A DNA stretch of 63,890 bases, counting the filler, from Reticulomyxa filosa (taxonomy: Eukaryota; Protista; Foraminifera), in the NCBI GenBank assembly GCA_000512085.1. It is 20 parts of 20 records of this genome, joined end to end, with 100 filler letters (N's around TTAATTAATTAA, not from the genome) between each part and the next. Parts side by side here need not be neighbours in the genome. Positions count along the whole stretch, not along the records: positions 35,607 to 40,982 come from ASPP01003538.1; 19 more parts are not named here. The stretch is one strand, 5' to 3'. A program made the translations under genes and the position numbers. Below are positions 15,853-63,890 of the stretch, one piece after another. The notes beneath the pieces were generated by a model. That model made no database searches and was not told the origin of the DNA. It saw nothing but the letters and a program-made list of their open reading frames with translations. Each line of letters opens with the position of its first letter. Within the stretch, counting starts at the first letter, position 1.

Positions 15853-17009
15853 AAAAATAAAAAAATATAACTAACCAAGTAAAGATAAGCATCAATAGTA
15901 AATCGAATAGAATCAATATCTTCTTTTGTAATTTTGTCTTTCCATTTGTATTCTTTCAATAGTCACACTTCAAATTGTTCACTTGACATTATTTTGAACT
16001 TTTCAATAATATCTGATTTGTCATTTTGTTCTCTTTGATGCCACCATTTCATCAATTTTTTAAGTTGATCCTGGATTTGCTTTGAATTTTCAATGTAAGT
16101 TGTATAGAAAATACTTTTTCATTTTTTATGTTAGAAATGTAATATATATATTCTTTTTTACTGTTTCATCTTCATTTATTTTTTCTTATCTTCTTCATTC
16201 AACCATTCACTCACTTTCGTTTTCATGTGTGTTGATACAGTCATCCTTTTGCCATTCCATCCTCCAATATGCATATTCATTGAATGATGCAATATCACTA
16301 CAAACAGGTAATTGGCGAAATTGAAACAAAATGTTACTTTCATCATATTCAATTGATAATCCTATCTTTTTACAAAATAATAGCATTTCATCATTTCTTG
16401 TACTCATCCATTTTTTGACTTTGATACAAAGCAATGATAAATAATATAACTGGCTGGTAATTTATCATGTTTAATAAATTGAAATACATTTAAATCAAAC
16501 ACGCTAATATTATTTTTATAATAAGTAATAAATAACAAATGATTGTTGCTTCCATCAATCACTGCACGCACTCCTTCATAATCATCTTGTTTTCTTCCAA
16601 TTTGAATTGGATAATTGTGACTGTCTATGAAAGGGATTCATTCATTGTACTTTTTTGATTTATTCCTTTTGATGTCACTTATATATTTTATCACCAATGT
16701 ATGGTTATGTTTTCCACCAAAAGATAACAGAGTGACCCCATTGCTGTCTTTGTTGTTTCTGTGATATTCCAGTTTCAATACACAGTGTCCAAATAATTTG
16801 ACTTCATGTGGATACTCACAGACGAACTTGTATTCATTTTTGAGTGTATGATAAGAATAACAAGCCCTCTGTTTACAAATGAGGATTTTGCGTTTGTATC
16901 GTACACATTGAGGCAAAGCAAATGAAGAGGACACATTCTTCACATCCTGAAAGGGAGTTGAGGTAGTAATGATTTGCTTTTGCTTTCGTGCTGTGTTTTG
17001 GCTGCTCAT
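15853..17009 (-). pseudogene. Kelch-like beta-propeller family gene, disrupted
   Basis: CYSYHTLKNEYKFVCEYP, GHCV, LLSFGG; after a stop at 16638 it continues GVRAVIDGSNNHLLFITY...SVFDLN...YHCFV. Further frameshifts follow. Confidence 0.75.
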
Positions 17010-17736
17010 GCGTTAATGTTGAGACACCATTAAGTTAAATTTTTAAAAACTACAAAACTCTGTTTTCTCTTTTTTTCTTTCAACAGAAAAACTGAGTAAT
17101 TTTTAGAAATAAAAAAATATAATGAAGAGAGTTAACGTTATTTTTTATGTGCCAAGTTACTAAATAACAAATAGATTACATCTTTGCCTTCCTGAAAAAG
17201 CAAAAAATACATCAATACAATTTTTGGATTTGTTGTTTTTATGTATTATAAAAGTTTTTGTTTGAATAACCATTGACATATGCAAATACTTTTTTCAAGG
17301 GGTCTGTCACGTCCCTTTTAAAAAAAAATTCAGCTAGTCGAAATGCAACACAAAAACCTCATGAACGAAAAACTGAACAAAGTTAACATATCACTACTTT
17401 AACTTCCTTTCAAAACTTGAAAGCTTTGTCTATTCCGCTTTACGAACATCAATACGTACTACTACAAACACAAAATTAAAAAATTGCATGTTCGCGCATA
17501 TATGAGCAGTATATAAAAAAAATATTCGATGATGTTATCGAAGAGGGATGATTGATGAAACAACTGAAAACACAAATTGAAATGTATCACAAATAATTAA
17601 AATTTTGAACATTCTTTTTTTATCTCACACAAAATATTTACTTTCGTCTCATTTTGATTAAAAAAAGAAAGAATTTTTGAAAAGTGATTGAACTTTCTTT
17701 CACAAAATATGTTGCTTTTTTCTCATATCAGAATGT

Positions 17737-18830
17737 CTATCCCCACATACAAATGGGCCCTGTTAATGTTCCATAACATAAATTATAATTATAATTAGTA
17801 CCATTAATAACATTTCTTTCTCCATTCTTCAATGCCACAAATTCAATACATCTTATTCCTCTATCTTCTTCATCTCCTTTAACCTCATAAAATTTTCTGG
17901 TGATTCGGATATCCCAAAAACGAATTGTATTATCTTCTGATCCAGAACATATTACATTTGAATTTAATATATTATTTATGTTATTGTTTCTGAAAGGAAG
18001 ATATTCCACACAATATACCGCATTTGTATGCTCTTTAAATACATGAGTTTGTTTACTAGTTCGGATATCCCACAAACGAACACTTTTATCATGTGATCCT
18101 GATAATATTGTATTTAATAATTCATTTGATCCATATTTTACACTCATCACATAATCTGTGTGTCCTTTGAATACATTGAATTGTTTTGTTGTTTCAATAT
18201 CCCATATTCGAATGGTTTTATCGTTTGATCCAGAACAAATTGTATATCCATTTCCACCAATCACACCAACATTATTACTTTTATCATTGCTGTTGCTTTG
18301 CAATGATGAAATATCCAAACACCAAACAGTATTTTCATGTCCTTTGAAAACATGTAATGATTTTGATGTTTCAACATCCCATAAACGAATTTTTTTGTCA
18401 AATGATCCAGAACACAAATATCGGCCACCACTAAATCGTGAAAATTGGAGGGGAATAATGCCTTTGTTATGTCCATTGAGTGTTTGAAATTCTTTATCAA
18501 TATCGAAATCCCAAAATCGAATAATTTTATCACCTGACGAAGAACAAATTACTGAGCGATGATGATTATAATAATGATACGGTGAAAATTTCGCACAATA
18601 TACTCTAGTGGAATGTCCTTGGAAGCATTTCAATAGTTGTCTTGTTTTTACATTCCATACACAAACTGTTTTATCTTTTGACCCAGAGCAAAGATATTGC
18701 TCACCATTCAATGATGCATAATCAATACTCCTTACAACATTAGTATGTCCAGTGAAAGTCTCGATTAACTTGGAAGATTCGAATGAATCGAAAGAGATAG
18801 TAGAAAATTGTCTGAATGGAGAAAAATATA
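17737..18830 (-). CDS. WD40 repeat protein of the expanded family (about 7 blades, 5' truncated)
   Basis: Uninterrupted ORF with repeated GH...CSGSxDKT(I/V)R(L/I/F)WD units, ending in GPICMWG. Confidence 0.95.
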
Positions 18831-18930
18831 NNNNNNNNNNNNNNNNNNNNNNNNNNNNNNNNNNNNNNNNNNNNTTAATTAATTAANNNNNNNNNNNNNN
18901 NNNNNNNNNNNNNNNNNNNNNNNNNNNNNN

Positions 18931-28689: not shown

Positions 28690-28920
28690 TTGTAAATTTG
28701 TGCTGTATTAAAATATATAAAGCAATGATTTGTAAAAAATGTTGAAATATTTTTGTTAGTAAATAAGAAAAAAAAAAATAGAAATTGATTGTTACGTGTT
28801 CTCTGTTAGCCAGGTTAAGACATCCTTTGTCTTTTCAGCATCTTGATCAAACCATTCCAATACGTCTGAAATGCTCTCTTGATTAATCTCGGGGAACGTC
28901 TGTTGAAGTTGTGTAAGCAT
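28690..28920 (-). CDS. N-terminal CUE/UBA-like exon, probably a paralogue of the PUB-ART gene at 37422-40085
   Basis: MLTQLQQTFPEINQESISDVLEWFDQDAEKTKDVLTWL is CUE-like (L...FP). It ends at a GT donor and resembles the decayed 5' end (TLQQT...) of the gene at 37422-40085. Confidence 0.55.
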
Positions 28921-35080: not shown

Positions 35081-36387
35081 TAATGCGATCCCTCCAAAAA
35101 AACTCATCTGATATCGCATTATCCTCTCCTATCCCTCTAACTGCTCTTCGCCCTCCTCCCAGTCCCAGCATCGAGCACAGCGATGCCAGGATCGCAAACA
35201 CCGCAACTCAAGCCGCAGCACATTGACACTCATTACCAACTCTTATCTCCCGTCCCGCTGCATTCTTCGCCGGACATGCACGTCCACAACTCGCCAAGTA
35301 AAGACAGAGATGCCAGTGTCGGACTTGTCGCTCGTCTCAAAGCCAAAAACAGCGACTCCACCGCTCTGCCGTCGCGTGACGACCTCAGTACAGGGGGCGT
35401 GGGGCGCTACGTACACAAAGAATCGGAGCCATTGCTCGCGTCCAGCAGATTGTTGGTATTGAATACGAGGCCAGCCAGCGACGTTGTTGGCATGAATAAC
35501 AATGACNNNNNNNNNNNNNNNNNNNNNNNNNNNNNNNNNNNNNNNNNNNNTTAATTAATTAANNNNNNNNNNNNNNNNNNNNNNNNNNNNNNNNNNNNNN
35601 NNNNNNTGGAAAGAAATCTCTTTTTGTTATTGCAAACAATTAAAACTGTACAAAGAGAATATGAGTAAAATGAAGGACTTGTTGAGACTGGAATAATTTT
35701 TAATTTTTTAGTATTTTTGATTTTTTACTAATAAAGAAGGTTTTGTTTCTTCATAAAAAAAGAAATTTTTTTACAAGAATTTTTTTTGCTTTAATTTCTA
35801 GTTTACTCAAAATTATCAAAAAAAAGATAGTAATGATTTTGTTGCAATTTGGTGAAAAATAAAATAAAATCAATGGATAATTTTTCATTGTTTATCTTAT
35901 CTCTCAAAATTACTAAATGTTCACATTTTAATTCACTTTATTCTGGTTCCAATAATAAATTAATTTTTGATTTGCTTGTATTTACAATAAGCATTCAATG
36001 TATATTGAAAACTTTTTATAAGATCTTTCTAAAATACAATGTGACAACTATTCAATTATGCTCAATTTTTTGTTTCACTAATCAACAAAGATATCTCGCA
36101 AAGAAAGAAAATTTTACTTCAATTCCTGTATCAAGTCTATTGATTAGTTTTTGTGAAAATAATTTTATTTTTGAGTTATCAAAACAATAATAAGTAAGTA
36201 TATTACACTTTTGTCTTTCTATAAAAAAACAAATAAAAAAAATAAATTCAACATTGGATATGTTAAACGTAAATTGGAGATGAGCTATGTAAGAGTTTGG
36301 AGTAGTAACAATAAAACGAATGAACTAAATAATTGTAATCAATCCTTTCACAGACATACAATCATTCAAGAAATTATCAAAAAGTGT

Positions 36388-36669
36388 ATGAGATTAGAGA
36401 ATATTAAAGAAATTAAATTTGGATTTTTCATAAGTCATGTAAATACTTCTGATGATATTCAAGTTACAAAGATTTATAGAAGTGATCGAGGATGTATTTT
36501 ACATTTTCATCCTTCTATGAGAAGAGCAAATATGATATACAGTTTTGATGTATCATGGATATCTCCATTCAAACATGAAAGAAAAATTTTATTTTCTAGA
36601 TCTCAAGAGATTTAATTTTATAACACAAATACTAAAGAAGAAGCTGGATGGAATGCAAAAATAGAGAGA
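36388..36669 (+). pseudogene. Inverted partial duplicate of the ADP-ribosyltransferase domain
   Basis: Near-identical to the reverse complement of ~37826-38105, but STS is changed to NTS, ERE to ERK, and there is a stop at 36613. Confidence 0.9.
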
Positions 36670-37421
36670 AAGATAAACAACAAACAATAATTGAAATTAA
36701 AATATTTGTCAAGCATATTATTATTGTGTAAAATACAAATATCTTCTATTAATAAATAACTTCAAAAAAAATAGGACAAACATTTTGAACTGTTTTTACG
36801 AATGATTCAATATAAAACAAAGAAAATCATGAATGGTTTAGACAAAAAATTATCTCACATTTTTTTGTTTAAGAATAAATTTTCTAAGAACAAATTAGGA
36901 TAAAAACAAAAATCGGATTTGAAATTTACAATTTTAGTCAACTAATTCAGATAATTGCTCTAAATCTAAAGTTTAAAGTCATTCTTTTGTTGAAAGTAGA
37001 ATATGTGCTTTTTTTTCTTGCAAAGATTTATTGAATTAGCAAAATATAAAGTTGTAATTGTACTCTTCAGCGGTCAATGACGCATCACATTTCTTAATTT
37101 TAAGATAATGTTAAAAAATTCATTTTTTAAACAAAAAACAATTGTTTTCTTATAAAATCAAAATCTTTTTAGTTGGAAAACCAGAATGAGGCCTTTTTCA
37201 TTCTGATTGACTCACAAATGAAACAAAGATTGCTATCATTTGCCAATTTCATTTGAAAAAAGACAATTAAATAAAAGAAGAAAATGATGATATCAAAGAA
37301 CAAGAATCGATCACATTCAAACAATGAAACTTGTTTATGAAAAATTAAAAAAAAAGTATCATCAAATATTCTTCTCTTATTATCTTTTTCAGTCTAACAA
37401 ATAATATGTTTGACAAATATT

Positions 37422-40085
37422 TCAATTTCCTTTATTGCTCTTTTTGTCTTCATCGACAAATGGCAAACCATCTTTGACAGTAACTGCTGTTGCAAGTTCA
37501 ATAGGAGTGTTAGATCTTGATAGCCCTTTCTCTACGATAAAAATGAAAAACAAGTTGATGTGATGATTGCAACAACGTTTTTCCATAAATTCCTTCTTTT
37601 TTTCTTCATATTTCATTTTATTCTCTGTTTCATTTCTCCATTCTTCAATGAAAGGTAAAATCTCCATTGTTCGATCAATGTCTCCTTGAGCATTCGTTAA
37701 CACGATATAGATGAGATTTAAATCAATGGGATTATTCCACCTTTTACTAATAGACATAGTTTGTTGGATGAATTGATCATATCTTGTCCATGTTAATAAT
37801 ATCATTTGTGTGTTTTTATTTTCTTTCTCTATTTTTGCATTCCATCCAGCTTCTTCTTTAGTATTTGTGTTATAAAATTGAATCGCATGAGATCTAGAAA
37901 ACAAAATTTCACGCTCATGTTTGAATGGAGATATCCATGATACATCACAGCTATATATCATATTTGCTCTTCTCATAGAAGGATGAAAATGTAAAATACA
38001 TCCTTGATCACTTCTATAAATCTTTGCAACTTCAAAATCATCAGAAGTACTTACATGACTTATAAAAAATCCAAATTTGATTTCTTTAATATTCTTCAAT
38101 CTCACTTCTTTCAGTCCACAATATAATTCTATACTCTCTTCTTCTCTTCTTTCGTGATTGTGCAAAATACGGATAGCTTGTTGCAAATACCAATCCAAAT
38201 TACTCCATTTCGAATGTTGAAATTGTATTTGGTCACGACTAAATTGAACATTACATGATCTTCCACAATACAATAGTATTGCACAAATATGAATTAATTG
38301 AAGTGGATATCCCATTTGTTTATGAATATCATCACGATACAATGTTTTTACTTCATTTAATATTGTTAATATGTTTTTATTTAATTTTAATTCATTTACA
38401 TTTTTTTCATTGTAATTAATTTTTTGTTTGATTGTTTCATGAAGTTGTTTTTCCTCTTTTTTAGTTAAATACTGAATTGTGACCAAATCCGTCAAATGCT
38501 CATTCTTGATTACTTCATGCAAAAGGGATTTCCATTGATTGTTGCTTGTATCTTTAATCGAAAACATAGTATCTTGAATAGTTTTAAGTTTGTGAATATC
38601 ACATTCATACAATAATGGATTGAATTTAGGTTTTTGATTTGATGAAATATCTTTACTTGGACTACTTTTTGGTATATCTGTTCTTTCAATACTAATTGTA
38701 TGTTTGTAAGACACCATGGATATACAATGCATTCCCAATAAACTTGTATATTTGGATAATGAGGAAAATGTCTGTAAATGTCATTCAATAATACATCCTC
38801 ATTTATATCTAATAAAATTTGTGGCTTAAAATTATTAAAATTACATTCCAATTTTATAAATTCATCCTCTCCATATAAAGACTCTTGTCTTATTTGTAAT
38901 TGATGTTTGAGATGTTCAAGTCCTTGTTTTAGAGTCATGGAATAAGGATTGAATGGTTCTTTATGTGCTGTACCACTCTCATTCAAAATAATTTGAAATG
39001 AATTGAATTCCTGTTTATAAATGAATGTTAAAACAATCTACAAATTAAAGTTTATTTTATTCAAATTTTATTTGTACTGAAATGATTAACTGAACAAAAA
39101 TTTGATAAAAATTCTCTACTGGCAATTTGTTCTGTGCGGAAATGCCAACCATGGTTAAGAATGAGATTGTAGTGCTTGATACAACTTGTTTTGAATTTTA
39201 GAATAATCATTATACCATTTAATATGAACATTGAATTCAAATGATGATTTCTTTGAATTTCCAACATGTAACGTTTTTAATTTTATTTTTTTAGACTTAC
39301 CTACTTTATTTTTATCCAATAATACAATCCTTCGATATTCATAATCAAATAAAATTTCATATTCTTTCCATTTTCCATTTGATAACATACACACTGTTTT
39401 TTGGGATATCTGTTCTCGTTTTGTAACTATTCATTTGTCATTTATAAATAAAAAAAAAATTCAGATATAAACAAATAATACATTGATTGTTGTTTAATCC
39501 ATTTTTTATAATATCCCCACAACAGTAACAATTGAGAATCAAATTGGATAACAAGATAATACCAATTGTCATCATTTTCTTTTTGGAATCCATAATCTTT
39601 TAAAAATGATTGCATCTTTTCAAATAATGAATCCACATTGATATTGAATTGATAACATTTTTGTTTTAAACGTTGATACAATGAACTTGTGTTGATTTGA
39701 CGATATTTGATAATTTTTGGATGAGATATTATACTCCATAATGTGTATAAACACATTTCTCTCATTATTTTCAATTCATTGTTTTCTTCCATTCTATTCA
39801 ATATGCAATCACAAACATTCGCAAATAGTTTTTTTAATCATTTCTACATTTTTTAACTTGTTGATATTGGAAGTAGAAGATATCTCCTTTAATTTTATAT
39901 TTGTATCTGCATAAATTTGATTACATTGTTTCCATGTACTTAAAATGGTTGTTTTGTCAATCTTATTATCATATTCTTCTAGTAATCTCATTAAAAGCAG
40001 CTGTTGTTGAAGAGTTATTCTATAATTGATGTATTAATTTGTAAAAAAATAATATTTGAACAAGTCTGTTGTAAAGCGTTGGTTA
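37422..40085 (-). CDS. Multidomain protein: (CUE-like)-PUB-PH-like-mono-ADP-ribosyltransferase (R-S-E clade)-UBA-like, with frameshifts
   Basis: PUB-like LYTLWSIISHPKIIKYRQIN...FLKDYGF. ART motifs ELYCGL / FISHVSTSDDFEVAKIY / DVSWISPFKHEREILF. Frameshifts at ~38733 and ~39185, and a decayed 5' end. Confidence 0.75.
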
Positions 40086-41085
40086 TAACTTATTCTCTAC
40101 AATGAAATTCAGGACCATAGTTGTTTCGTCAACATTTTCTTTGCACAAATTCCAGATTTTTGAAACAAAATCTCTTTTTCAATTGTGCTAAAATTGTCTT
40201 GAAGTCGTTCCATTTGAAACACTCAAGTTTAATACTTCCAACAGTTCTTTGGAAAAACTCTTTTTCAAACTGGAACGAAGTACACCCGGAAAAAAGTAAA
40301 TATTTTACTCTTATACTACATCTTATTTCGTAACAAAAATGAATATTAAAAATATTCTTTATTGATAAAGTAAATAATTTGACCTACTTTTACACTTTCT
40401 CCCATTCGGCGATGTTAAGTCAAAAGAGTCCCATCATTTTGTTAGGGTAAAATGAATGTTGATTATGCAATTTAAACAAGGTAAACAGGTAAAATCCACA
40501 TATTAGCAAATTTTTTATTTTTTGAAATGGATTAGCTTTTCAAGGATTTTATTTTGCTGGCAAAGATTTTTTTATTTTTCACTCCGGAGTGGCACAAAAA
40601 ACTACTCCACTTTTTTGCTGAGGATTGGTTTAAACTATTTTTCACAATTCATACAATTTATTGAAATATAATGAATTGATATAAAATATGATATATGTTA
40701 CAAAATTTTCACTATTTCTTTTGTGAATAAATATTCTTTTATTCATGTTATTGACAACAATTAAAGTTAGAAAAACATTATGTAAGATTGTTTATATAAA
40801 GTTGGATGTAATTTTAAACGTGAAAATTGAAACAAAGAAGAGTAGTAAAAGGTAGACATTCTACTTTTGCATTTTCACTTTGGGAAAATTGGATAATGCT
40901 CTCTTTACAAGGCTGAGTTGTTTATCTAACTTAAATCATTAAGAAAAAAAATCAAACAACATTCCAAATTTTAAAATGCATTNNNNNNNNNNNNNNNNNN
41001 NNNNNNNNNNNNNNNNNNNNNNNNNNTTAATTAATTAANNNNNNNNNNNNNNNNNNNNNNNNNNNNNNNNNNNNNNNNNNNNTAC

Positions 41086-49880: not shown

Positions 49881-51081
49881 TTCCTTTTTTTTTTGTTACA
49901 AAAAAAAAAAGATGTAGTCATAAATAACTTAAAAGGAAAAAAGTCATGATAACTACCTTTTTTTAATCCTGTAAGTTGAAGAGTGAAGAAATCATTTAAT
50001 TGAAGTTGTCAGAATTTTTTCATTATTTCAAAGGTGCATGATTATTGTCCTCTTTTTTACAGTAGTAACTACAAAATCGAATTGGTTAATTTGCTAATTT
50101 ACAAAAAGTACAACTTTATGTCAATCTTTTGCATAACATTATCTTTACTTTGTTTGATAAAAAGATAAAAAGATTTGATTTATTCTTAACAATGATTAGC
50201 ACATTGAATAAAAATGACATATTTTGACAATGTATTGATATGATTACTAAATCATTTCAGTGACAGTATGTCCTCCAATCTTTGAAACAATTGAATTTTT
50301 GGAATGACAAATAAAAATGAACAAACGCATATACACCAATTTTGGATTAAAAAAAAAATAAGTCAAAAGACTATATTTTTTCATATTATTATCACCCAAC
50401 AGTCGCATTGAGTTTAGACTTTAGAGTCAACTATTTCATCCATTTTATTCAAAAATAATACAAAATAGTAATCATTTTTTTTTAAATCAAATTTATTTAT
50501 TAAATTTTGATAAATAATTTGGTCCGAATTGTGAGATATAATCAACATTAGAAATATATATGAATGTGAAAAACGGTAGAAACACAATGAACATAAGGAA
50601 CAGTTGGAGTCATAATGGACTCAAGATTGTGTTCATAAAAAATTTTTTTTGTTTTCAGATTCATTGTTTCTATTTCATTGTCAAAATGTAAGTTTTTATA
50701 AACAAACAAACAAAAAAATGTATTAATTTGTTCAATATATGACAACAATAAAAAAAAAAATTAATTTGGAATTCAAATATAAATAACAAAATAATCATAT
50801 ATAAACATAGATAAACCAGAGTCGATATCAAATGTTGCAAGTGTTGGTATTCTCGTTCGTGTTCGCAAATATGTGTTCATGTCGCAATAATAATAATAAT
50901 AATAATAATAATCATCATCACTGTTATAGTCATCGTTGTTATCATCGAAATGTTTTGGCGCATAGTATGTGATGACAAGCGNNNNNNNNNNNNNNNNNNN
51001 NNNNNNNNNNNNNNNNNNNNNNNNNTTAATTAATTAANNNNNNNNNNNNNNNNNNNNNNNNNNNNNNNNNNNNNNNNNNNN

Positions 51082-51623
51082 CCGACGACCACACCCGCGC
51101 CTGTGCCGCGGCGGCGCTGGGCGAGCCGTTGACCGTGCACCCCGAGGCCCGCGCACTGATCGAAGGCCGTTTTGGCGACGAAGCCTACCCGCACCGCATC
51201 AATATGGGCACCTTCCCGGCCAGCGCCAGCATCATCCCCAACCCGGTCAACCAGATTCCCGGCTTCAGCTGCGCCAACGTGCACTTTGTGCCCGGCTTCC
51301 CGAATATGGCGTGGCCGATGGTGGAGTGGGTGCTGGATACCCACTACCGTCAGCTGTTCAGCGACAGCCCGGACGTCGAGCGCGGCTGCATTGCGCTGGA
51401 CGCACGCGAAGGCGACCTGATCAGCCTGATGCAAGACTTTGTCGCCCGCTACCCGGCCTTGCGCCTGTCCAGCCTGCCCAGTTTCGGCAACGAGCGTATT
51501 GCGCAGATGCATATCGAGTTCGGTTTCAGCGGCCAGCCGGCGCTGGTGGACATCGCACTGAGCGAATGGCAAAAAGCGCTACAAGCTAAGGGCTATACCG
51601 TGCAGGCCAAGACTGAGTGCTAA
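51082..51623 (+). CDS. Bacterial CinA-like / molybdopterin-binding domain protein (5' truncated)
   Basis: T.DDHTRACAA, IIPNPVNQIPGFS, FVPGFPNMAWPMVEWVLD. GC-rich and intron-less. Confidence 0.85.
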
Positions 51624-51630
51624 TCGCCAC

Positions 51631-51661
51631 AAGGTTGGCCGCCACCGCCGTGGCCAACCTT
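51631..51661 (+). terminator. Stem-loop after the cinA-like stop codon
   Basis: AAGGTTGGCC...GGCCAACCTT 10-bp stem starting 8 nt after TAA; the U-tail is weak. Confidence 0.55.
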
Positions 51662-51731
51662 GCTGTGCTTGACCGCACGCCATCGTGCTGACCATACTGG
51701 CACTTCGATAAATACCGCCAAGGAGACCGAC

Positions 51732-51773
51732 ATGGAAAAAATGGATATTGCCACCGTGCCGGTCACCGTCTGA
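51732..51773 (+). promoter_or_regulatory. Putative leader peptide MEKMDIATVPVTV upstream of the rsgA-like gene
   Basis: Strong Shine-Dalgarno AAGGAG at 51720-51725, 6 nt before the ATG. The 13-codon ORF is followed by hairpins. Confidence 0.55.
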
Positions 51774-51931
51774 GCGGGTATCACGCTGTTCCCCTGCGCC
51801 ACGCGCATCCTGCTTTACCCCTCATTCCGTGTCACCGGCTACCTCATACCGGTGCTGCAGCCTGGCTGCAGCGTAGGCCCTTTACGGGCATGGCTCGCGT
51901 GTCTGCACGCGCGCCCGTCACGGAAACCTTC

Positions 51932-52984
51932 ATGTTTACATTCGATTTTACCCGTCTGGCCGCCATCGGCCTGACGCCCGCGCTGTTGCAATCGCTGCTG
52001 CAACAGGCGCAATACGACGCCACCCTGTGCCGTGTCAGTGAAGTGCAGCGAGATGTCATTACCGTCCATGATGGCGAACACGAGCACGTTTGCCGCCTGG
52101 GTAGCGGCCTGTGGCAAGCCCTGCAAGCCGACGACGGCATCGCAGTGGGTGACTGGGCACTGGCCCGTTGCGATAGCCACGGCGGCTGGTGGCTGCTGCA
52201 GCGTTTTGCCCCGGCGGCGGCACTGTCGCGGCGCGACAGCCACGGTCAGCGCCAGCGCATTGCCAGCCCATATCGATACGGCCTTGCTGGTGATGGGGCT
52301 GGATGGCGACTTCAACCTGCGCCGGCTGGAGCGCTACCTGAGCATGGTGCAGGCCGCCGGCATCAGCCCGGTGGTGGTGCTGAGCAAGGCCGACCAGTGT
52401 GCCGACCCCGACGCGGCCATCCAGGCGGTGCGCCAGCGTATACCGCACTGCCAGCACGTGCTGGCGCTGAACGGCACCGATGCTGCCAGTTGCGGCCAAC
52501 TGGCGCCGTGGCTGGGGGCAGGGCAGACGCTGGTGCTGCTGGGTAGCTCCGGTGCCGGCAAGTCCACGCTGGGCAACACATTGTTGGGCGACGCACGCCA
52601 GCAAACCGGTGCGGTGCGGAGGGCGACAGCCGTGGCCGGCACACCACCACGGCGCGCAGCTTGCACTGCCTGCCGGGCGGAGGGTGCCTGATCGATACCC
52701 CTGGCGTGCGTACGCTGCAGCCCGACCTGGATGCTGAGCAGCTGGCCGACAGCTTTGCCGATATCCAGGCGCTGGCGGCGCATTGCCAGTTCCGCGATTG
52801 CCGCCATCAGCAAGAGCCTGGCTGTGCGGTGCGCAATGCGGTGGATGCTGACCGGCTGCACAACTACTTCAAGCTGCTGCGCGAGGCGCAGCGCGGCGAG
52901 GAAAGCCTGTTGCAACGCAAGGCTCAGCAAGCGGTATGGAAACGGCGCAGCAAGGCGATGCGGCAAAAGCAGAAGCTGGAATAA
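51932..52984 (+). CDS. rsgA: Ribosome small subunit-dependent GTPase RsgA-like (two frameshifts)
   Basis: AVGDW OB-fold, [33 protein letters not shown] and the [14 protein letters not shown] zinc site. Frameshifts at ~52270 and ~52620. Confidence 0.92.
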
Positions 52985-53136
52985 AGCTGACACAGGCGGG
53001 CGGTGCGTTACCGCGTGCTGCCCGTCTGCTGTGCCACGGTGTCTGGCTTGTTTCTGCTTATGTCATTTGCAATAATACTGACCTTAGCCAGCCAACCCGT
53101 GGGTGAGCCAGCCAGCAATTTTCTACGAGGCGCCCC

Positions 53137-53508
53137 ATGTCCCACTCCGTTTCATTACACCGATACGCGCTTGCCAGCCTGCTCTGCATGCTGGCTGCTA
53201 GCCATGCTGTTGCAGCCGATACGCCAGATACGCTTGTACAGCAAGCTCACCATCTGCTGGAGCAAGGCCAGCCGGAAGCCGCGCTGCCGTTGCTGGAGAA
53301 CGTGCTGGCCAGCCAGCCACAGCACGCCGCCGCGCGTTTCAACCGTGGCGAGCTGCTGCGCGGGCAAGGCAAGCTGGCACCTGCGCTGGTCGATCTCGAC
53401 GTCGCGGTGGCGAATGCGCCGGGCAATGCCCGCTACCTGGGTACGCGTTGCGTGGTCCGAGTGCAAGCCGGGCAGGCCGAGGCCGGGCTGGCAGACTGCC
53501 AGCAGGCA
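53137..53508 (+). CDS. Bacterial exported TPR protein (3' truncated)
   Basis: Signal peptide (ALASLLCMLAASHAVA) followed by TPR helices. Confidence 0.8.
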
Positions 53509-54575
53509 NNNNNNNNNNNNNNNNNNNNNNNNNNNNNNNNNNNNNNNNNNNNTTAATTAATTAANNNNNNNNNNNNNNNNNNNNNNNNNNNNNNNNNNNN
53601 NNNNNNNNATAATAATAATAATGACTTAAATGCTCATAGCTCTGATGATGATGATGACGATTGGGAAAAAGAGTTCATGGACTTCACTCATCAGAATGAA
53701 AGTCTACCCTGCCAAACTGCTCCTTCTAGAAATACTACTGGTCAAGTTGATCCTCGCGTTTCCACTGCTTTGTAAAATAGTCTTGTACGTCTTTCCTTTG
53801 CTTTTTTTATCCCTCCTTCTTTCCTCTCCTTTTTTTTTTTCCATTGTTTGTCAAAAAAAAAAATTCTTCTCCAATAATCCTAATTTCAAAAAAAAAAAAA
53901 CAAAACTAAATAAAATGGCAGGTTTTAATTTTATGTAACTGTACAAATTCGAAAAAAGCTAATACTCTACCTTGCAGGAGAGTGTTCTTTTAGTATCATA
54001 GAAAAAATATGTTCTAATATTTATTTTGTAATGGCAAAAAAAAAGGCTAACAGAAAAGAATAAATACATTTCTTTAATAAAAAAAAGCTCACATTATTTC
54101 AAACGTTAGAAAACAGTTTTGAAACTTTTATTGGAGTGTTTCCATTCGTCAAAACAACCCTTCAAAAAAAAAAAAAGGATAGACTTCAAAATAAAAAAAA
54201 TAGAAAATGGCCACAGGAATTGAAGCGGACTTTGAAGACCTGGTAGAATATTTGTTTTGGGATTGTCCATTAGATGACACAAATCAAATTGCGCAGATTG
54301 CTCGAATAGTTGCAGATTTTGCAGACTTGCAGATAGTAATAACCGTTGAGTTAACCCAAGCGTGATAAAAATATGAAAGTGTACACAAATAAAAAAAAAT
54401 GATGACACCCAAACAGACAAAATTTAGTTTCGATCCGGTGTCGACGAAAAAGATATCGAGGCGAACGGCAGTGGCCGACATATCCGACGACAACATACTT
54501 CATCTCTTATACGAGCTGAACCCGTATGAAAAGGCGTGTGGCCTCGTTAAAATAAACAAATTCAAAAGGCGGAAA

Positions 54576-56609: not shown

Positions 56610-58037
56610 ATGAACAAGCTTGGAGATGAGAACATGAAAGAAAAAGAAGGATTTGTTGAAACTATAATAACATCAGTTCCTTTTGTTCGGCAGTGCTTTG
56701 ACAAAAATTGGGTGTTGCAATTGAACCCACAAGAACAAATTGGTCATTGCATTTGTTTGATTTGCAAACAAGTTGCAAATAATCCAGTTGAAATTAATTG
56801 TCCCCAACACGAAGACATGGACGAAGCATTGATTGCTGGAGAGAATTGTCTAAAACAATTTCTCAAAAATAATAATAATAAATGTCCTGTTCAACCTCAT
56901 GACGGTTGTCAGTACTATAAAGTAAAAGCAATGCAAAAACAAATAAATGAACTAAATGTCATATGCCAAATGCAATTTAATCAAGATTTGAAAACGATAG
57001 GAATGAATGAAGAAGGACAAACAGATGGTGATATGACTGTGATATGTGATTTTAAAGGGAAAATAAGAGATATGAATGAACATTTAAATACATCATGTGC
57101 ATTAAAAGTATCCAATTGTTGGTTTAGACAATTTGGATGTGAATATTCTTGTCCCGATAAAGATTTAAAACATCATTTGATTGAAAATATGAGACAACAT
57201 TTTGATTTCGTAATTAAGAAATTCGAATTGATGCAACAAATAATCAAACAACAACAAGTTTATCATTCTTTTTTTTTTTTTTTATTAAAATTAATAACAT
57301 AATTGAATAATTGAATAATTAAACAATAAATATAGGATGAGATTAAACAGTTGAAATCAGAAAAAGAGCTAAATGAAAAAAAACAAGATGAAGAAATTTC
57401 AAAAATAAATAATAATAATCTAATATTAAAACAACAATTAGTATGTTTCATTTTCTTATTTCTATTTTAAAATACAAACATATAACATATAACATTAATT
57501 AGAACAATCAATCCACTGAAATTCAACAATTAAAAAAAGAGACGCAATTCAAAGATAATAAAATAAATGTTAATTATAACGAAGATAAAAAAGATAATGA
57601 TTACAATCATCAATTATTACAATCCAAATATATAGCGTCGTCTACATTCAACTTTGATTTGTTTCGCTCATCATCCAAAATATTCAACACATTAAAAGGA
57701 CATGCCGGAATTGTGTGGAGTATTGATTATTCAACATTTGATGGTAATCAATTCATTTGTTCTGGGTCATCTGATAGAACAGTTCGTTTATGGGATGTTG
57801 ACAACAACAAACAAATTCAATCATTCGATGGCCATTTAGATTATGTGTACTGTGTGAAATTTTCGCCATATCATTACTATAATCATCATCGAAATGTCAT
57901 TTGTTCTCCATCACTTGACAAAACCATTCGTTTTTGGGATATCAAAAATAATCAACCATTCAAATTATTTAATGAGTGCACTAATGGCATTTGTGGAATT
58001 GAATTTTCATCATTTAATGGTGGTAGATATTTGTGTT
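56610..58037 (+). CDS. RING-like - TRAF zinc fingers - coiled coil - WD40 protein (TRAF7-like architecture), 3' truncated
   Basis: CLICKQV...CPQH...GENCL...CPVQPH; CDFKG...HLNTSC; CWFRQFGC...HHL; two short coiled-coil exons; WD40 repeats from ~57660. Confidence 0.88.
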
Positions 58038-58559
58038 CTGGATCATATGACAAAACANNNNNNNNNNNNNNNNNNNNNNNNNNNNNNNNNNNNNNNNNNN
58101 NTTAATTAATTAANNNNNNNNNNNNNNNNNNNNNNNNNNNNNNNNNNNNNNNNNNNNATCTTCAAAATCTTCAAATCTTGGAAGATGTTGCCAAAAAAAG
58201 ATACTTCCAAACTAGTTTCAAGTTTTTTGCTTTGTACTTGTCAGATGATCAGATATATATATTTTTTTTTAACTTCTACTGCACATCGGGCACTCGCTGA
58301 TAACAAGGCTTGTGAAGGCGATTGGAGAGTCGAGGCAAGGTGTCTTTACCCTAATTGGATCTACTGCAAGCCATGTTGGGACAAAATACCCCACTCTAAT
58401 GGTAAGGAAAAAAAAAATCCTTATCTCAAGCCATAAGTAGGGGTACAAATCCTGCGTCTTACGAATGTCCAAATACATTCCCATGGCGAAAAAAGTTTCC
58501 AACATTCAAAATGTGGAGGTCGTTGTTTGTTCCAACTCCCGGGACCCCCAAACGTGGAT

Positions 58560-61444: not shown

Positions 61445-61544
61445 NNNNNNNNNNNNNNNNNNNNNNNNNNNNNNNNNNNNNNNNNNNNTTAATTAATTAA
61501 NNNNNNNNNNNNNNNNNNNNNNNNNNNNNNNNNNNNNNNNNNNN

Positions 61545-62618
61545 CCGACGGCCTGAAAGCGCTGCGTCAGAAGATCCTGTCGCTGAAGATCGGCGACAGC
61601 GGCTACGTCTACGTGCTGGACGCCAAGGCACGTCCGGGCGAGCTATTGATCCACCCCAGCAAGGAAGGCAAGAACATGCTGGACAGCGTGGACGCCGACG
61701 GCCAGACCTTCGTCAAGACCATGCTGTCGCAACAGCAGGGCCTGATCCGCTACAACTGGCTGGACCCGGATAAAACCACGCCGCGCGTGAAGCTGGCGAC
61801 CTTCGTGTCTTACCCGCACTGGGGCTGGCTGGTGGCCACCAGCGCCTACCAGGACGAGCTGGTGCGCGAACCACGCGAAATGCAGGTGAAGATGCTGCTG
61901 GGTACGCTGCTGGTGATCGCACTGCTGATTGCGCTGGTATTTGTGGCGATGCGCCGCTGGGTCAGCCAACCGCTGTCGCGCCTGGTGGCCACCACCCGCC
62001 GCGTGGCCGCCGGCGACCTCACCGTCAGCATTGCCGTGGATCGCCACGCGAAATCGGCAAGTACTACAGGCCAGCAACCAGATGTGCCAGGAGCTGCGCC
62101 AGCTGATCAGCGAGGTCAACCAGAGCGTCGATGGCCTGGCGCGCAACGCCCAGGGCCTGGCCGCGCTGTCGGAAGACGTCTCCGGCAGCTCGCAAGAGCA
62201 AAGCCGCGCCGTGGCCGCCATGGCGGCCTGCGTCGAGGAGATGACGCAGAGCATCGGCCAGGTGAGCCAGTACGCCAGTGACGCGCGCGAGCTGGCCATC
62301 CAGTCCGACCAGGTATCGCAAACCGGCGAAGTGATTGTTGGCCGCACCGTGCAGACCGGTAGTACCGCCGCCACCGTTACCCAGCTGGGCGAGCGTTCGG
62401 AGCAGATCAGCCGCGTGGTGACCGTGATCCGCGACATTGCCGACCAGACCAACCTGCTGGCGCTGAACGCCGCCATCGAAGCCGCCCGCGCCGGCGAGAT
62501 GGGGCGTGGCTTTGCCGTGGTGGCCGACGAGGTGCGCAAGCTGGCCGAGCGCACCGCCAGCTCCACCACCGAAATCGCGCAGATGATCAACACCATGCAG
62601 GGCAAGTCGGACGACGCC
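61545..62618 (+). CDS. Bacterial methyl-accepting chemotaxis protein (Cache-TM-HAMP-signalling domain), partial, frameshifted
   Basis: [12 protein letters not shown]...LLIHP Cache domain, a TM segment, HAMP (PL...VAAGDLT) and [40 protein letters not shown]. Frameshift at ~62050. Confidence 0.96.
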
Positions 62619-62764
62619 NNNNNNNNNNNNNNNNNNNNNNNNNNNNNNNNNNNNNNNNNNNNTTAATTAATTAANNNNNNNNNNNNNNNNNNNNNNNNNN
62701 NNNNNNNNNNNNNNNNNNTTTTTTTTTTTTTTTTTGTGATTTAAAAAAACAAACAAAAAAAAGG

Positions 62765-63819
62765 AAGAATCAAGACAATTAAAGATTGAAAATGAACAAT
62801 TAAAATGGAAAGTGCAGTCAAATGAACAAGAAAATGGTGACAACATCTCAAACTTAATGAATGAAAATGCGGTTTTGAAACATCAATTGTTGCAATGTCA
62901 ACAACAAATTACGCAATCAGATTCTTATTTGGTCTGTCCAAAAATGAAATTGTATTGTACTGTATATGTCGTAACTTAAAATGGAGAAAAAATTTTAATA
63001 CATAGCAAAAAAAATTGGCCGAAATTGAACAACTGACTGAAGAACTCAAAGCAAAAAAAGAGGAACTAAAAAAATGGAAAAGGGAAATACCAAGAAAAGA
63101 CAATCGACATTTGAACAAAGAAGATGAAGACAAGATAGCACAAGATAACTCCCAAGAAGAAATGGCCGAGCATAGCAATGCCAAATTGCCAAAGAAACGT
63201 GTGATTAAAAAAAAAGATCAATTGTTGGAGCAAAATAAGAAATTATTGAAATTACTGAAAGAAAACTATGCTAATGTAAATAGGGGCGATGATCACAAAG
63301 AATACAATGGTGATAATGACAAAGTATTGATGTCCACTTCTGAACATATTCATTCATTTCCTTTTGAATTAGTATGCACTTTCAAGCTGATCAAGACTTT
63401 CAGTGGACATAATGGATGTGTAAATAGTATTGATTATTCAACATTTGATGGTGGTCAATTTCTCTGTTCTGGATCGGATGATAAAACCATTCGTGTATGG
63501 GATACAGATGCAGCCAAGCAAATCAAGCTTTTGAATGGACATGATGAATATGTAAATTGTGTAAAATTTTCACTATATCATTACTATAACAATCGTCGTA
63601 TGGTCATTTGCTCTGCATCTGATGACAAAACGATTCGATTTTGGAATTTTGAAACCGAAAAAACCATGCAAGTATTCACTGGACATGACAAAGGTATTCT
63701 TAGTATTCAATTCTCATCATTCGGTGGTGGTCGCTATTCGTGCTATGCATCATTTGATAAAACAATTCGTTTATGGTATGTTGAAACTTCCAAATCATTG
63801 CATGTTTTTAAAGGACATA
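62765..63819 (+). pseudogene. Coiled-coil plus WD40 family gene interrupted by a transposon
   Basis: Coiled-coil exons, then family WD40 repeats that break off at SKSLHVFKGH|T where TIR sequence begins. Confidence 0.85.
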
Positions 63820-63890
63820 CAGTAGGTTGCAAAGAAAACTAAACACCTAAAACGATATCATATGATGATAATTGATTTTCTCCATGAAAA
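63820..63890 (+). mobile_element. Left TIR of the Tc1/mariner-family element
   Basis: TA|CAGTAGGTTGCAAAGAAAACTAAACACCTAAAACG...GATTTTCTCCATGAAAA matches the TIRs at 25999 and 26525. Confidence 0.85.

Follow-up and report, generated by a model that had tools for sequence, protein, structure and literature searches.

A Reticulomyxa filosa gene family with a predicted ADP-ribosyltransferase fold that lacks both NAD-binding arginines

The window analysed here is a stretch of 63,890 nucleotides of DNA from the foraminifer Reticulomyxa filosa (assembly GCA_000512085.1), in which unrelated contigs are separated by spacers of N. One of these contigs (35607-40982) carries, on the minus strand at 40213-37422, a gene belonging to a large family of multidomain proteins. 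The domain order is CUE, CUE-like, PUB, PH, a beta domain, an ADP-ribosyltransferase (ART) fold and CUE-like. The ART fold, which is a predicted one, lacks both arginines that grip nicotinamide adenine dinucleotide (NAD) and retains the STS and ExE motifs. As both arginines are lost, we favour the binding of target proteins over the modification of ubiquitin or p97: the domain likely serves, as in XopAI, as a pocket that receives a target peptide without catalysis, and the protein would be a pseudo-ART adaptor. We put the probability of this reading at about one half. A preliminary description of the gene had presented it as a cytosolic R-S-E enzyme that ADP-ribosylates ubiquitin, p97 or ubiquitinated proteins.

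The last 418 residues of the gene product gave a model with a predicted local distance difference test score (pLDDT) of 80 and a predicted template modelling score (pTM) of 0.80. Foldseek returned 11 matches at E<=0.001, and the ten top-ranked are all ARTC-type, with ExoS, ART2.2 and ExoT first. When the predicted fold was aligned with VIA-align, the score was Z 12.8 for ART2.2 (root-mean-square deviation (rmsd) 3.5, 188 residues aligned), 12.4 for HopU1, 12.2 for XopAI, 12.1 for ExoT, and 8.9 for both SidE and C3. The model exhibits the split beta-sheet of the ART fold, and the assignment of the STS/ERE region to this fold, made in the preliminary description, is upheld. Together with its N-terminal helices, the domain spans 37781..38597. 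When the PDB was searched by sequence, neither the single domain nor alignments A1, A2 and A4 gave a significant match, and only alignment A3 reached ART2.2 (E 0.009). In the profile of alignment A3, YsG of the family corresponds to YRG of ART2.2, and the helix residues sqr to AVR; ERE aligns with EQE of ExoT at a weak E of 0.26. The window's own core open reading frame (ORF) had no Pfam match at E<=1. The Pfam ART cut-off (PF01129) was passed by one close paralogue (P0009, 27.2 bits) and by several marine relatives, and UniRef automatically labels some members as ART or CUE proteins. AACRNL (PMC12957317) was considered as a relative and rejected, being an HGT-motif Crinkler-like ART; the excerpt of that article mentions neither Reticulomyxa nor Rhizaria.

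Paralogues were counted from protein records. The protein searches returned 71, 451 (at least 150 listed), 8 and 333 (at least 120 listed) matches, with the search for longer relatives spanning 1048-2990 residues, and of the 71 matches to the core protein, 70 carry the name R. filosa. Among 289 proteins, 200 have an ART segment that is 110-260 residues long. Seventy-seven of these share more than 40% identity with the gene and constitute the near, or Reticulomyxa-type, group. The remaining 123 share 24-40% and constitute the far, or marine, group, whose named members come from Bolivina, Nonionella, Elphidium, Ammonia and Globobulimina, plus one from R. filosa. In a tree of 198 rows, from which three gappy rows were dropped, the near group forms one clade (FastTree support 0.86, midpoint rooting), which takes in Joint Genome Institute (JGI) records. 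The multicopy family expected from the window is thus real: among the 77 near sequences, 23 models contain PUB, PH, middle domain and ART, and eight models of 721-882 residues contain all seven modules. Literature searches, judged by titles and the starts of abstracts, brought up no paper on the family; the genome paper and book chapters on ART evolution may mention it, and the excerpts of PMC12522546 and PMC12957317 do not mention Reticulomyxa. Scans with one short pattern, by which absence is not shown, gave no relative in 23 candidates from prokaryote genomes, 34 from viral contigs and 34 from metagenomes (alignment A3); with alignment A1, 1/163 candidates was a relative. Two further segments were observed. 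At L001:4-288, a segment of the family with 60% identity (HPSMRR, STT, EHE) opens a contig that otherwise looks bacterial and is probably a chimeric assembly. At 16282-17039 of the window, Kelch-like repeats match the C-termini of P0025, P0047 and P0055, in which the ART is joined to Kelch; these are either real fusions or merged models.

The preliminary description equated LYCG, STS and ERE with the YRG, STS and ExE of ARTC active sites. The order is indeed that of an ARTC active site, but LYCG has C where the defining Arg should be, a substitution that had gone unflagged. This Cys (38118..38120) is found at the beta1 (arom-R) site and an Ile (38226..38228) at the helix (aliph-R) site. Both arginines contribute to NAD binding (PMC6829252; this and the other articles cited by accession were used in excerpt). 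The near clade exhibits C, S, Y, G and R at the beta1 site in 62, 6, 4, 2 and 1 of 75 sequences, and Arg at the helix site in 0/68, which lends no support to an R-S-E enzyme. In this copy, an Arg is present three residues before the helix site, as it is in 2/63 paralogues. The STS (38043..38051) and ERE (37908..37916) motifs of this copy are intact. Across the near sequences, the first Ser of STS is present in 60/75 and the two glutamates of ExE in 54/71 and 64/75, and the Gly after beta1, the Ser and the Glu are conserved. Members of the marine clade exhibit S (75), T (38), C (5) or R (1) at the beta1 site (n=123), and they keep the helix Arg (119/123), the Ser (119/123) and both glutamates of ExE (122/123 and 120/122). 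Among the near paralogues, YRG, STS and ExE occur together in just one, the early-branching P0080 (RFI_27877), which is still devoid of the helix Arg.

Ranked by conservation among 176 sites, the Ser, the first Glu and the catalytic Glu stand at 3, 4 and 8 in the marine clade and at 77, 104 and 89 in the near clade, and the aromatic residue following STS moves from 32 to 153, as expected of a relaxed constraint; this contrast is inflated, because the near set consists of genome gene models, pseudogenes among them, and the EukProt and MMETSP sets supply the named marine members. On the near-clade tree, the Ser changes 13 times, the first Glu 12 times and the catalytic Glu 10 times, as against 0 and 2 changes for two control glutamates. 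STS and ExE have been lost repeatedly outside a crown group to which this gene belongs, and 6/23 long models have lost one or the other while retaining the architecture.

The closest parallel for such a site is XopAI, a type III effector of Xanthomonas (PDB 6K93, 6K94 and 6KLY). Its ARTC fold resembles that of the family (Z 12.0-12.2), and it likewise has a small residue in place of the beta1 Arg, has lost the helix Arg and has kept ExE (PMC6829252). In its structure, the cleft is occupied by an arginine peptide and not by NAD (PMC6829252). A cleft without phosphate-binding arginines that keeps the acidic ExE pocket could, in the family, capture the arginine side chain of a target peptide. XopAI differs in having a Glu at the helix site, where Ile is found here, and in being a secreted bacterial single-domain effector with 9-10% identity, and the resemblance is probably convergent. 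Several observations weigh against a non-catalytic pocket. XopAI lacks the STS serine (AAS/ATS), which is retained in the family, and the authors of its structure did not rule out that it acts as an enzyme (PMC6829252). STS and ExE are present in 17/23 long models. The crown group of 54 members keeps the Ser in 52/53, the first Glu in 50/51 and the catalytic Glu in 49/52, and within it these sites changed 1, 1 and 3 times, compared with a median of 4. In addition, the HPSMRR motif (37968..37985), which hardly varies within the Reticulomyxa-type clade and shows no conservation in the marine one, carries arginines present in 71/72 and 68/72 sequences. These arose on the same stem as the loss of the helix Arg, and could replace it.

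The same residues would suit an active arginine ADP-ribosyltransferase with a rewired site, in which Cys or Ser stands at beta1, the clade-specific arginines hold the phosphates, and the CUE and PH modules direct it to membranes that carry ubiquitin marks. We regard this as possible, though doubtful. STS and ExE are kept not only in the crown group but also in the earliest branches (P0110, P0080, P0101 and P0093), the new HPSMRR arginines are conserved, and ExE marks arginine specificity (PMC3102197). Moreover, the marine clade combines a lost beta1 Arg with near-invariant Ser and ExE. Nevertheless, both arginines assigned to NAD binding in the literature are absent, and the near clade has seen some ten losses of the catalytic residues. 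A broader proposal, equally tentative, is that of a foraminiferal cytosolic branch of arginine-type ARTs with a new S/T/C-S-ExE site; in Reticulomyxa, HPSMRR would have replaced the remaining NAD-binding Arg and CUE, PUB and PH would have been fused, giving active ubiquitin-guided effectors against prey or invaders. Compared with the arginine-specific ARTC enzymes (ART2.2, HopU1, ExoS/ExoT and Tre1; PF01129), the family has the same fold (Z 10.9-12.8), STS and ExE, but it has neither the beta1 Arg nor the helix Arg, no signal peptide was seen, and the domain lies within a CUE-PUB-PH protein.

The marine clade, partly auto-labelled PF01129, is the sister or parent group, with 24-40% domain identity and the DVSWIS..ExE pattern in common. 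Like the family, it has no beta1 Arg; unlike it, it keeps the helix Arg together with near-invariant Ser and ExE. Its partner domains include PH, RING/RZ, SAM, WD40, CNH and ubiquitin-like domains, and none of its 123 sequences matched the family PUB or CUE profile. Marine-type ART fusions (P0151, P0247, P0199, P0197, P0204 and P0177) comprise a RING plus RZ finger, in P0151, and a ubiquitin-family domain, in P0247, as well as CNH/Vps39, SAM, WD40 arrays and PH. From its residues, the marine clade (P0207, P0191, P0146, P0143, P0278 and others) is a stronger candidate than the near group for a non-canonical enzyme that is active, and it may represent an undescribed active-site variant.

The gene itself is real and contains introns, as had been described, but it begins at 40213, so that its CUE-type exon 1 lies outside the interval first given (37422..40085). 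The peptides quoted for it are all present on the minus strand. Alignment to paralogues confirmed the gene and its five exons and indicates four GT..AG introns, of 70 (40020..40089), 64 (39794..39857), 55 (39427..39481) and 80 nt (39011..39090). The standard code (table 1) yields long frames and the ciliate code (table 6) is unneeded. The frame is not intact: after splicing, four breaks remain near 40170, 39403, 39195 and 38732, all of which precede the ART domain. No in-frame stop occurs in the five in-frame pieces, which amount to 830 positions when X is placed at each break; the last 434 codons, including the ART domain, are an open frame. Three breaks are in or beside runs of at least four identical bases, in which 13% of exonic bases lie, and the fourth adjoins a run of three. 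A recent pseudogene, freshly broken, and homopolymer errors in the assembly both fit this copy.

It is improbable that the family is mostly decaying duplicated DNA with an ART domain that has no current role. The four breaks, many partial models and an adjoining pseudogene fragment are in line with such decay. The fragment, described earlier as a related piece, is an inverted, 5'-truncated copy of the ART region on the plus strand (36382..36705; 92% identity, 275/300 nt). It has a stop codon and Lys in place of the catalytic Glu, and differs from the gene by 8 synonymous and 12 non-synonymous or nonsense codons in 83. The other piece so described is also family-derived, but it is exon 1 of another paralogue (28795..28920, minus strand; CUE with an FP motif) on a separate contig, the end of which cuts it at 28690. 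Against decay, eight annotated models of 721-882 residues carry all seven modules. Many sites are invariant over a tree length of 38.5, and related sequences occur in JGI records and at locus L001. This copy is not visibly decayed either, as it deviates at only 9/216 conserved columns (4.2%, rank 16/40). A gene model beside it, RFI_03843 (P0070), matches 35873-36175 at 99%; at 35873-36900 it is apparently stitched from AT-rich frames and the ART pseudogene fragment, and is likely spurious.

The modules preceding the ART domain bear on the proposal that PUB docks the p97 tail and that the enzyme, in the manner of SidE, ADP-ribosylates ubiquitin, p97 or ubiquitinated proteins, which we consider very unlikely. 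For the N-terminal half, a model of paralogue P0067 was used (pLDDT 71), and it bears out both the PUB and the PH fold described for the gene. The predicted PUB fold, corresponding to exon 3 (39482..39793), matches PUB of PNGase (2HPL; Z 10.7, rmsd 1.9), and the PUB domains of PNGase, UBXD1, HOIP and SPATA2 share this fold, with alignments at rmsd 1.9-2.0 over 84-85 residues. Pfam PUB matches in the family are below the cut-off only (E 0.005 for this gene). The p97-tail pocket is formed by YxxN(x)9Y and K/RxxN, the latter for the C-terminal carboxylate of p97 (PMC6995525). Of 44 family PUB segments, 36 cover all five positions. The first Tyr is present in 0/36, being replaced by I (31), V (3), M (1) or L (1), while the Asn and the second Tyr are kept in 34/36 and 36/36; the K/R is present in 0/36 and its Asn in 3/36. 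The complete motifs are absent from all 36 paralogues, and this copy has Thr for the first Tyr and Ser for the first Asn. The family PUB is thus nearer to the non-canonical state of SPATA2, which has Val for the first Tyr and binds no known PUB-interacting motif (PIM) according to the excerpt of PMC6995525. Because the pocket motifs are missing, canonical p97 docking by this domain is unlikely.

The predicted PH fold, corresponding to exon 4 (39091..39426), which contains the breaks near 39403 and 39195, matches the PH domain of pleckstrin (Z 10.8, rmsd 2.2). The middle domain, of mixed alpha/beta type (38732..39010, with the break near 38732 at its end), is of unassigned fold and has a beta-grasp-like order of elements. 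A ubiquitin-like assignment was not confirmed, as hhalign probabilities stayed below 2% against a ubiquitin-family domain and the N-termini of marine members alike. This domain had no ESM Atlas feature hit (template modelling score (TM) <0.5), and neither a ubiquitin-like fold nor a CUE structure was among the top 50 fold-search matches listed, which PH and PUB filled.

Evidence for the CUE units varies. Pfam CUE is listed for 7/7 paralogue N-termini, above the cut-off only in P0065, and for neither of the two window exons. Among aligned N-terminal CUE units, FP is present in 13/24, aliphatic-Leu in 20/20, and a hydrophobic residue before FP in a minority. In this copy, exon 1 (40090..40213, with the break near 40170) has FS in place of FP. 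The second, CUE-like helical unit, in exon 2 (39858..40019), has an hhalign probability of 91% to the first unit. The C-terminal UBA/CUE helices described earlier (37637..37721) stand only as a weak call: their probability is 71%, the ESM Atlas leads to UBA/CUE clusters (0.79-0.80) are under the 0.9 bar, the FP motif is lacking, and Pfam CUE/UBA matched 0/5 segments. CUE domains can bind other folds (PMC6688830); that the CUE units of some paralogues may bind ubiquitin is plausible. The PUB fold and its kept pocket residues, the CUE match above the cut-off in one paralogue and the fusion of marine relatives to a ubiquitin-family domain (P0247) or a RING plus RZ finger (P0151) fit an enzyme of the ubiquitin/p97 pathway. 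In contrast, there is no sign that ubiquitin or p97 is the substrate, and both NAD arginines are missing. The mART domain of Legionella SidE, which shares the ARTC fold and a possible ubiquitin link, is a weaker match (Z 8.9) than ART2.2, HopU1, XopAI and ExoT (12.1-12.8), and Pfam scans gave no phosphodiesterase or ligase domain in the family. Least probable of all is an NAD+ glycohydrolase or NAD-metabolite sensor: some ARTCs do act mainly as hydrolases (PMC3102197, PMC10789625) and the Gly after beta1, the Ser and the Glu are kept, but hydrolysis likewise requires NAD binding, and the hydrolase example in the excerpt of PMC3102197 has QxE where the family has ExE.

For a pseudo-ART adaptor, the CUE-like modules would bind ubiquitin, with the reservation that FP is not present in this copy, and the PH-fold module would recruit the protein to membranes, so that it would be placed at ubiquitin-marked membranes. 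Its location would be cytosolic; in agreement with this part of the preliminary description, no signal peptide was found in 8/8 long paralogue models checked. The family evolves by birth and death. The protein may act as a fast-turnover sensor or adaptor in the handling of prey or invaders, a role suggested only by the expansion and turnover of the family and by the broader tendency of eukaryotes to recruit ART domains from toxins (PMC3417536).

Elsewhere in the window, the GC-rich contigs at 50982-53560 and 61445-62666 contain bacterial-looking ORFs, which by eye resemble a ribosome-associated GTPase, a TPR protein and a chemotaxis receptor and likely derive from co-sequenced bacteria. Four genes with WD40-like repeats, also recognised by eye, are apparently of one expanded type (982-1323, 17737-18882, 57503-58105 and 63006-63842).

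According to a 2010 review, unicellular eukaryotes seem to have no arginine-specific ARTs (PMC3102197). The foraminiferal clade, with at least 200 sequences, combines a predicted ARTC fold and ExE with the absence of the triad Arg. It provides a natural series, in which marine members are devoid of one NAD arginine with the rest nearly invariant, the crown group is devoid of both, and side branches are devoid of the glutamates. This series bears on whether an R-S-E enzyme can do without its R and on how an ART becomes a pseudoenzyme, and the remaining interest of the family lies mostly in the loss of the triad arginine across foraminifera.

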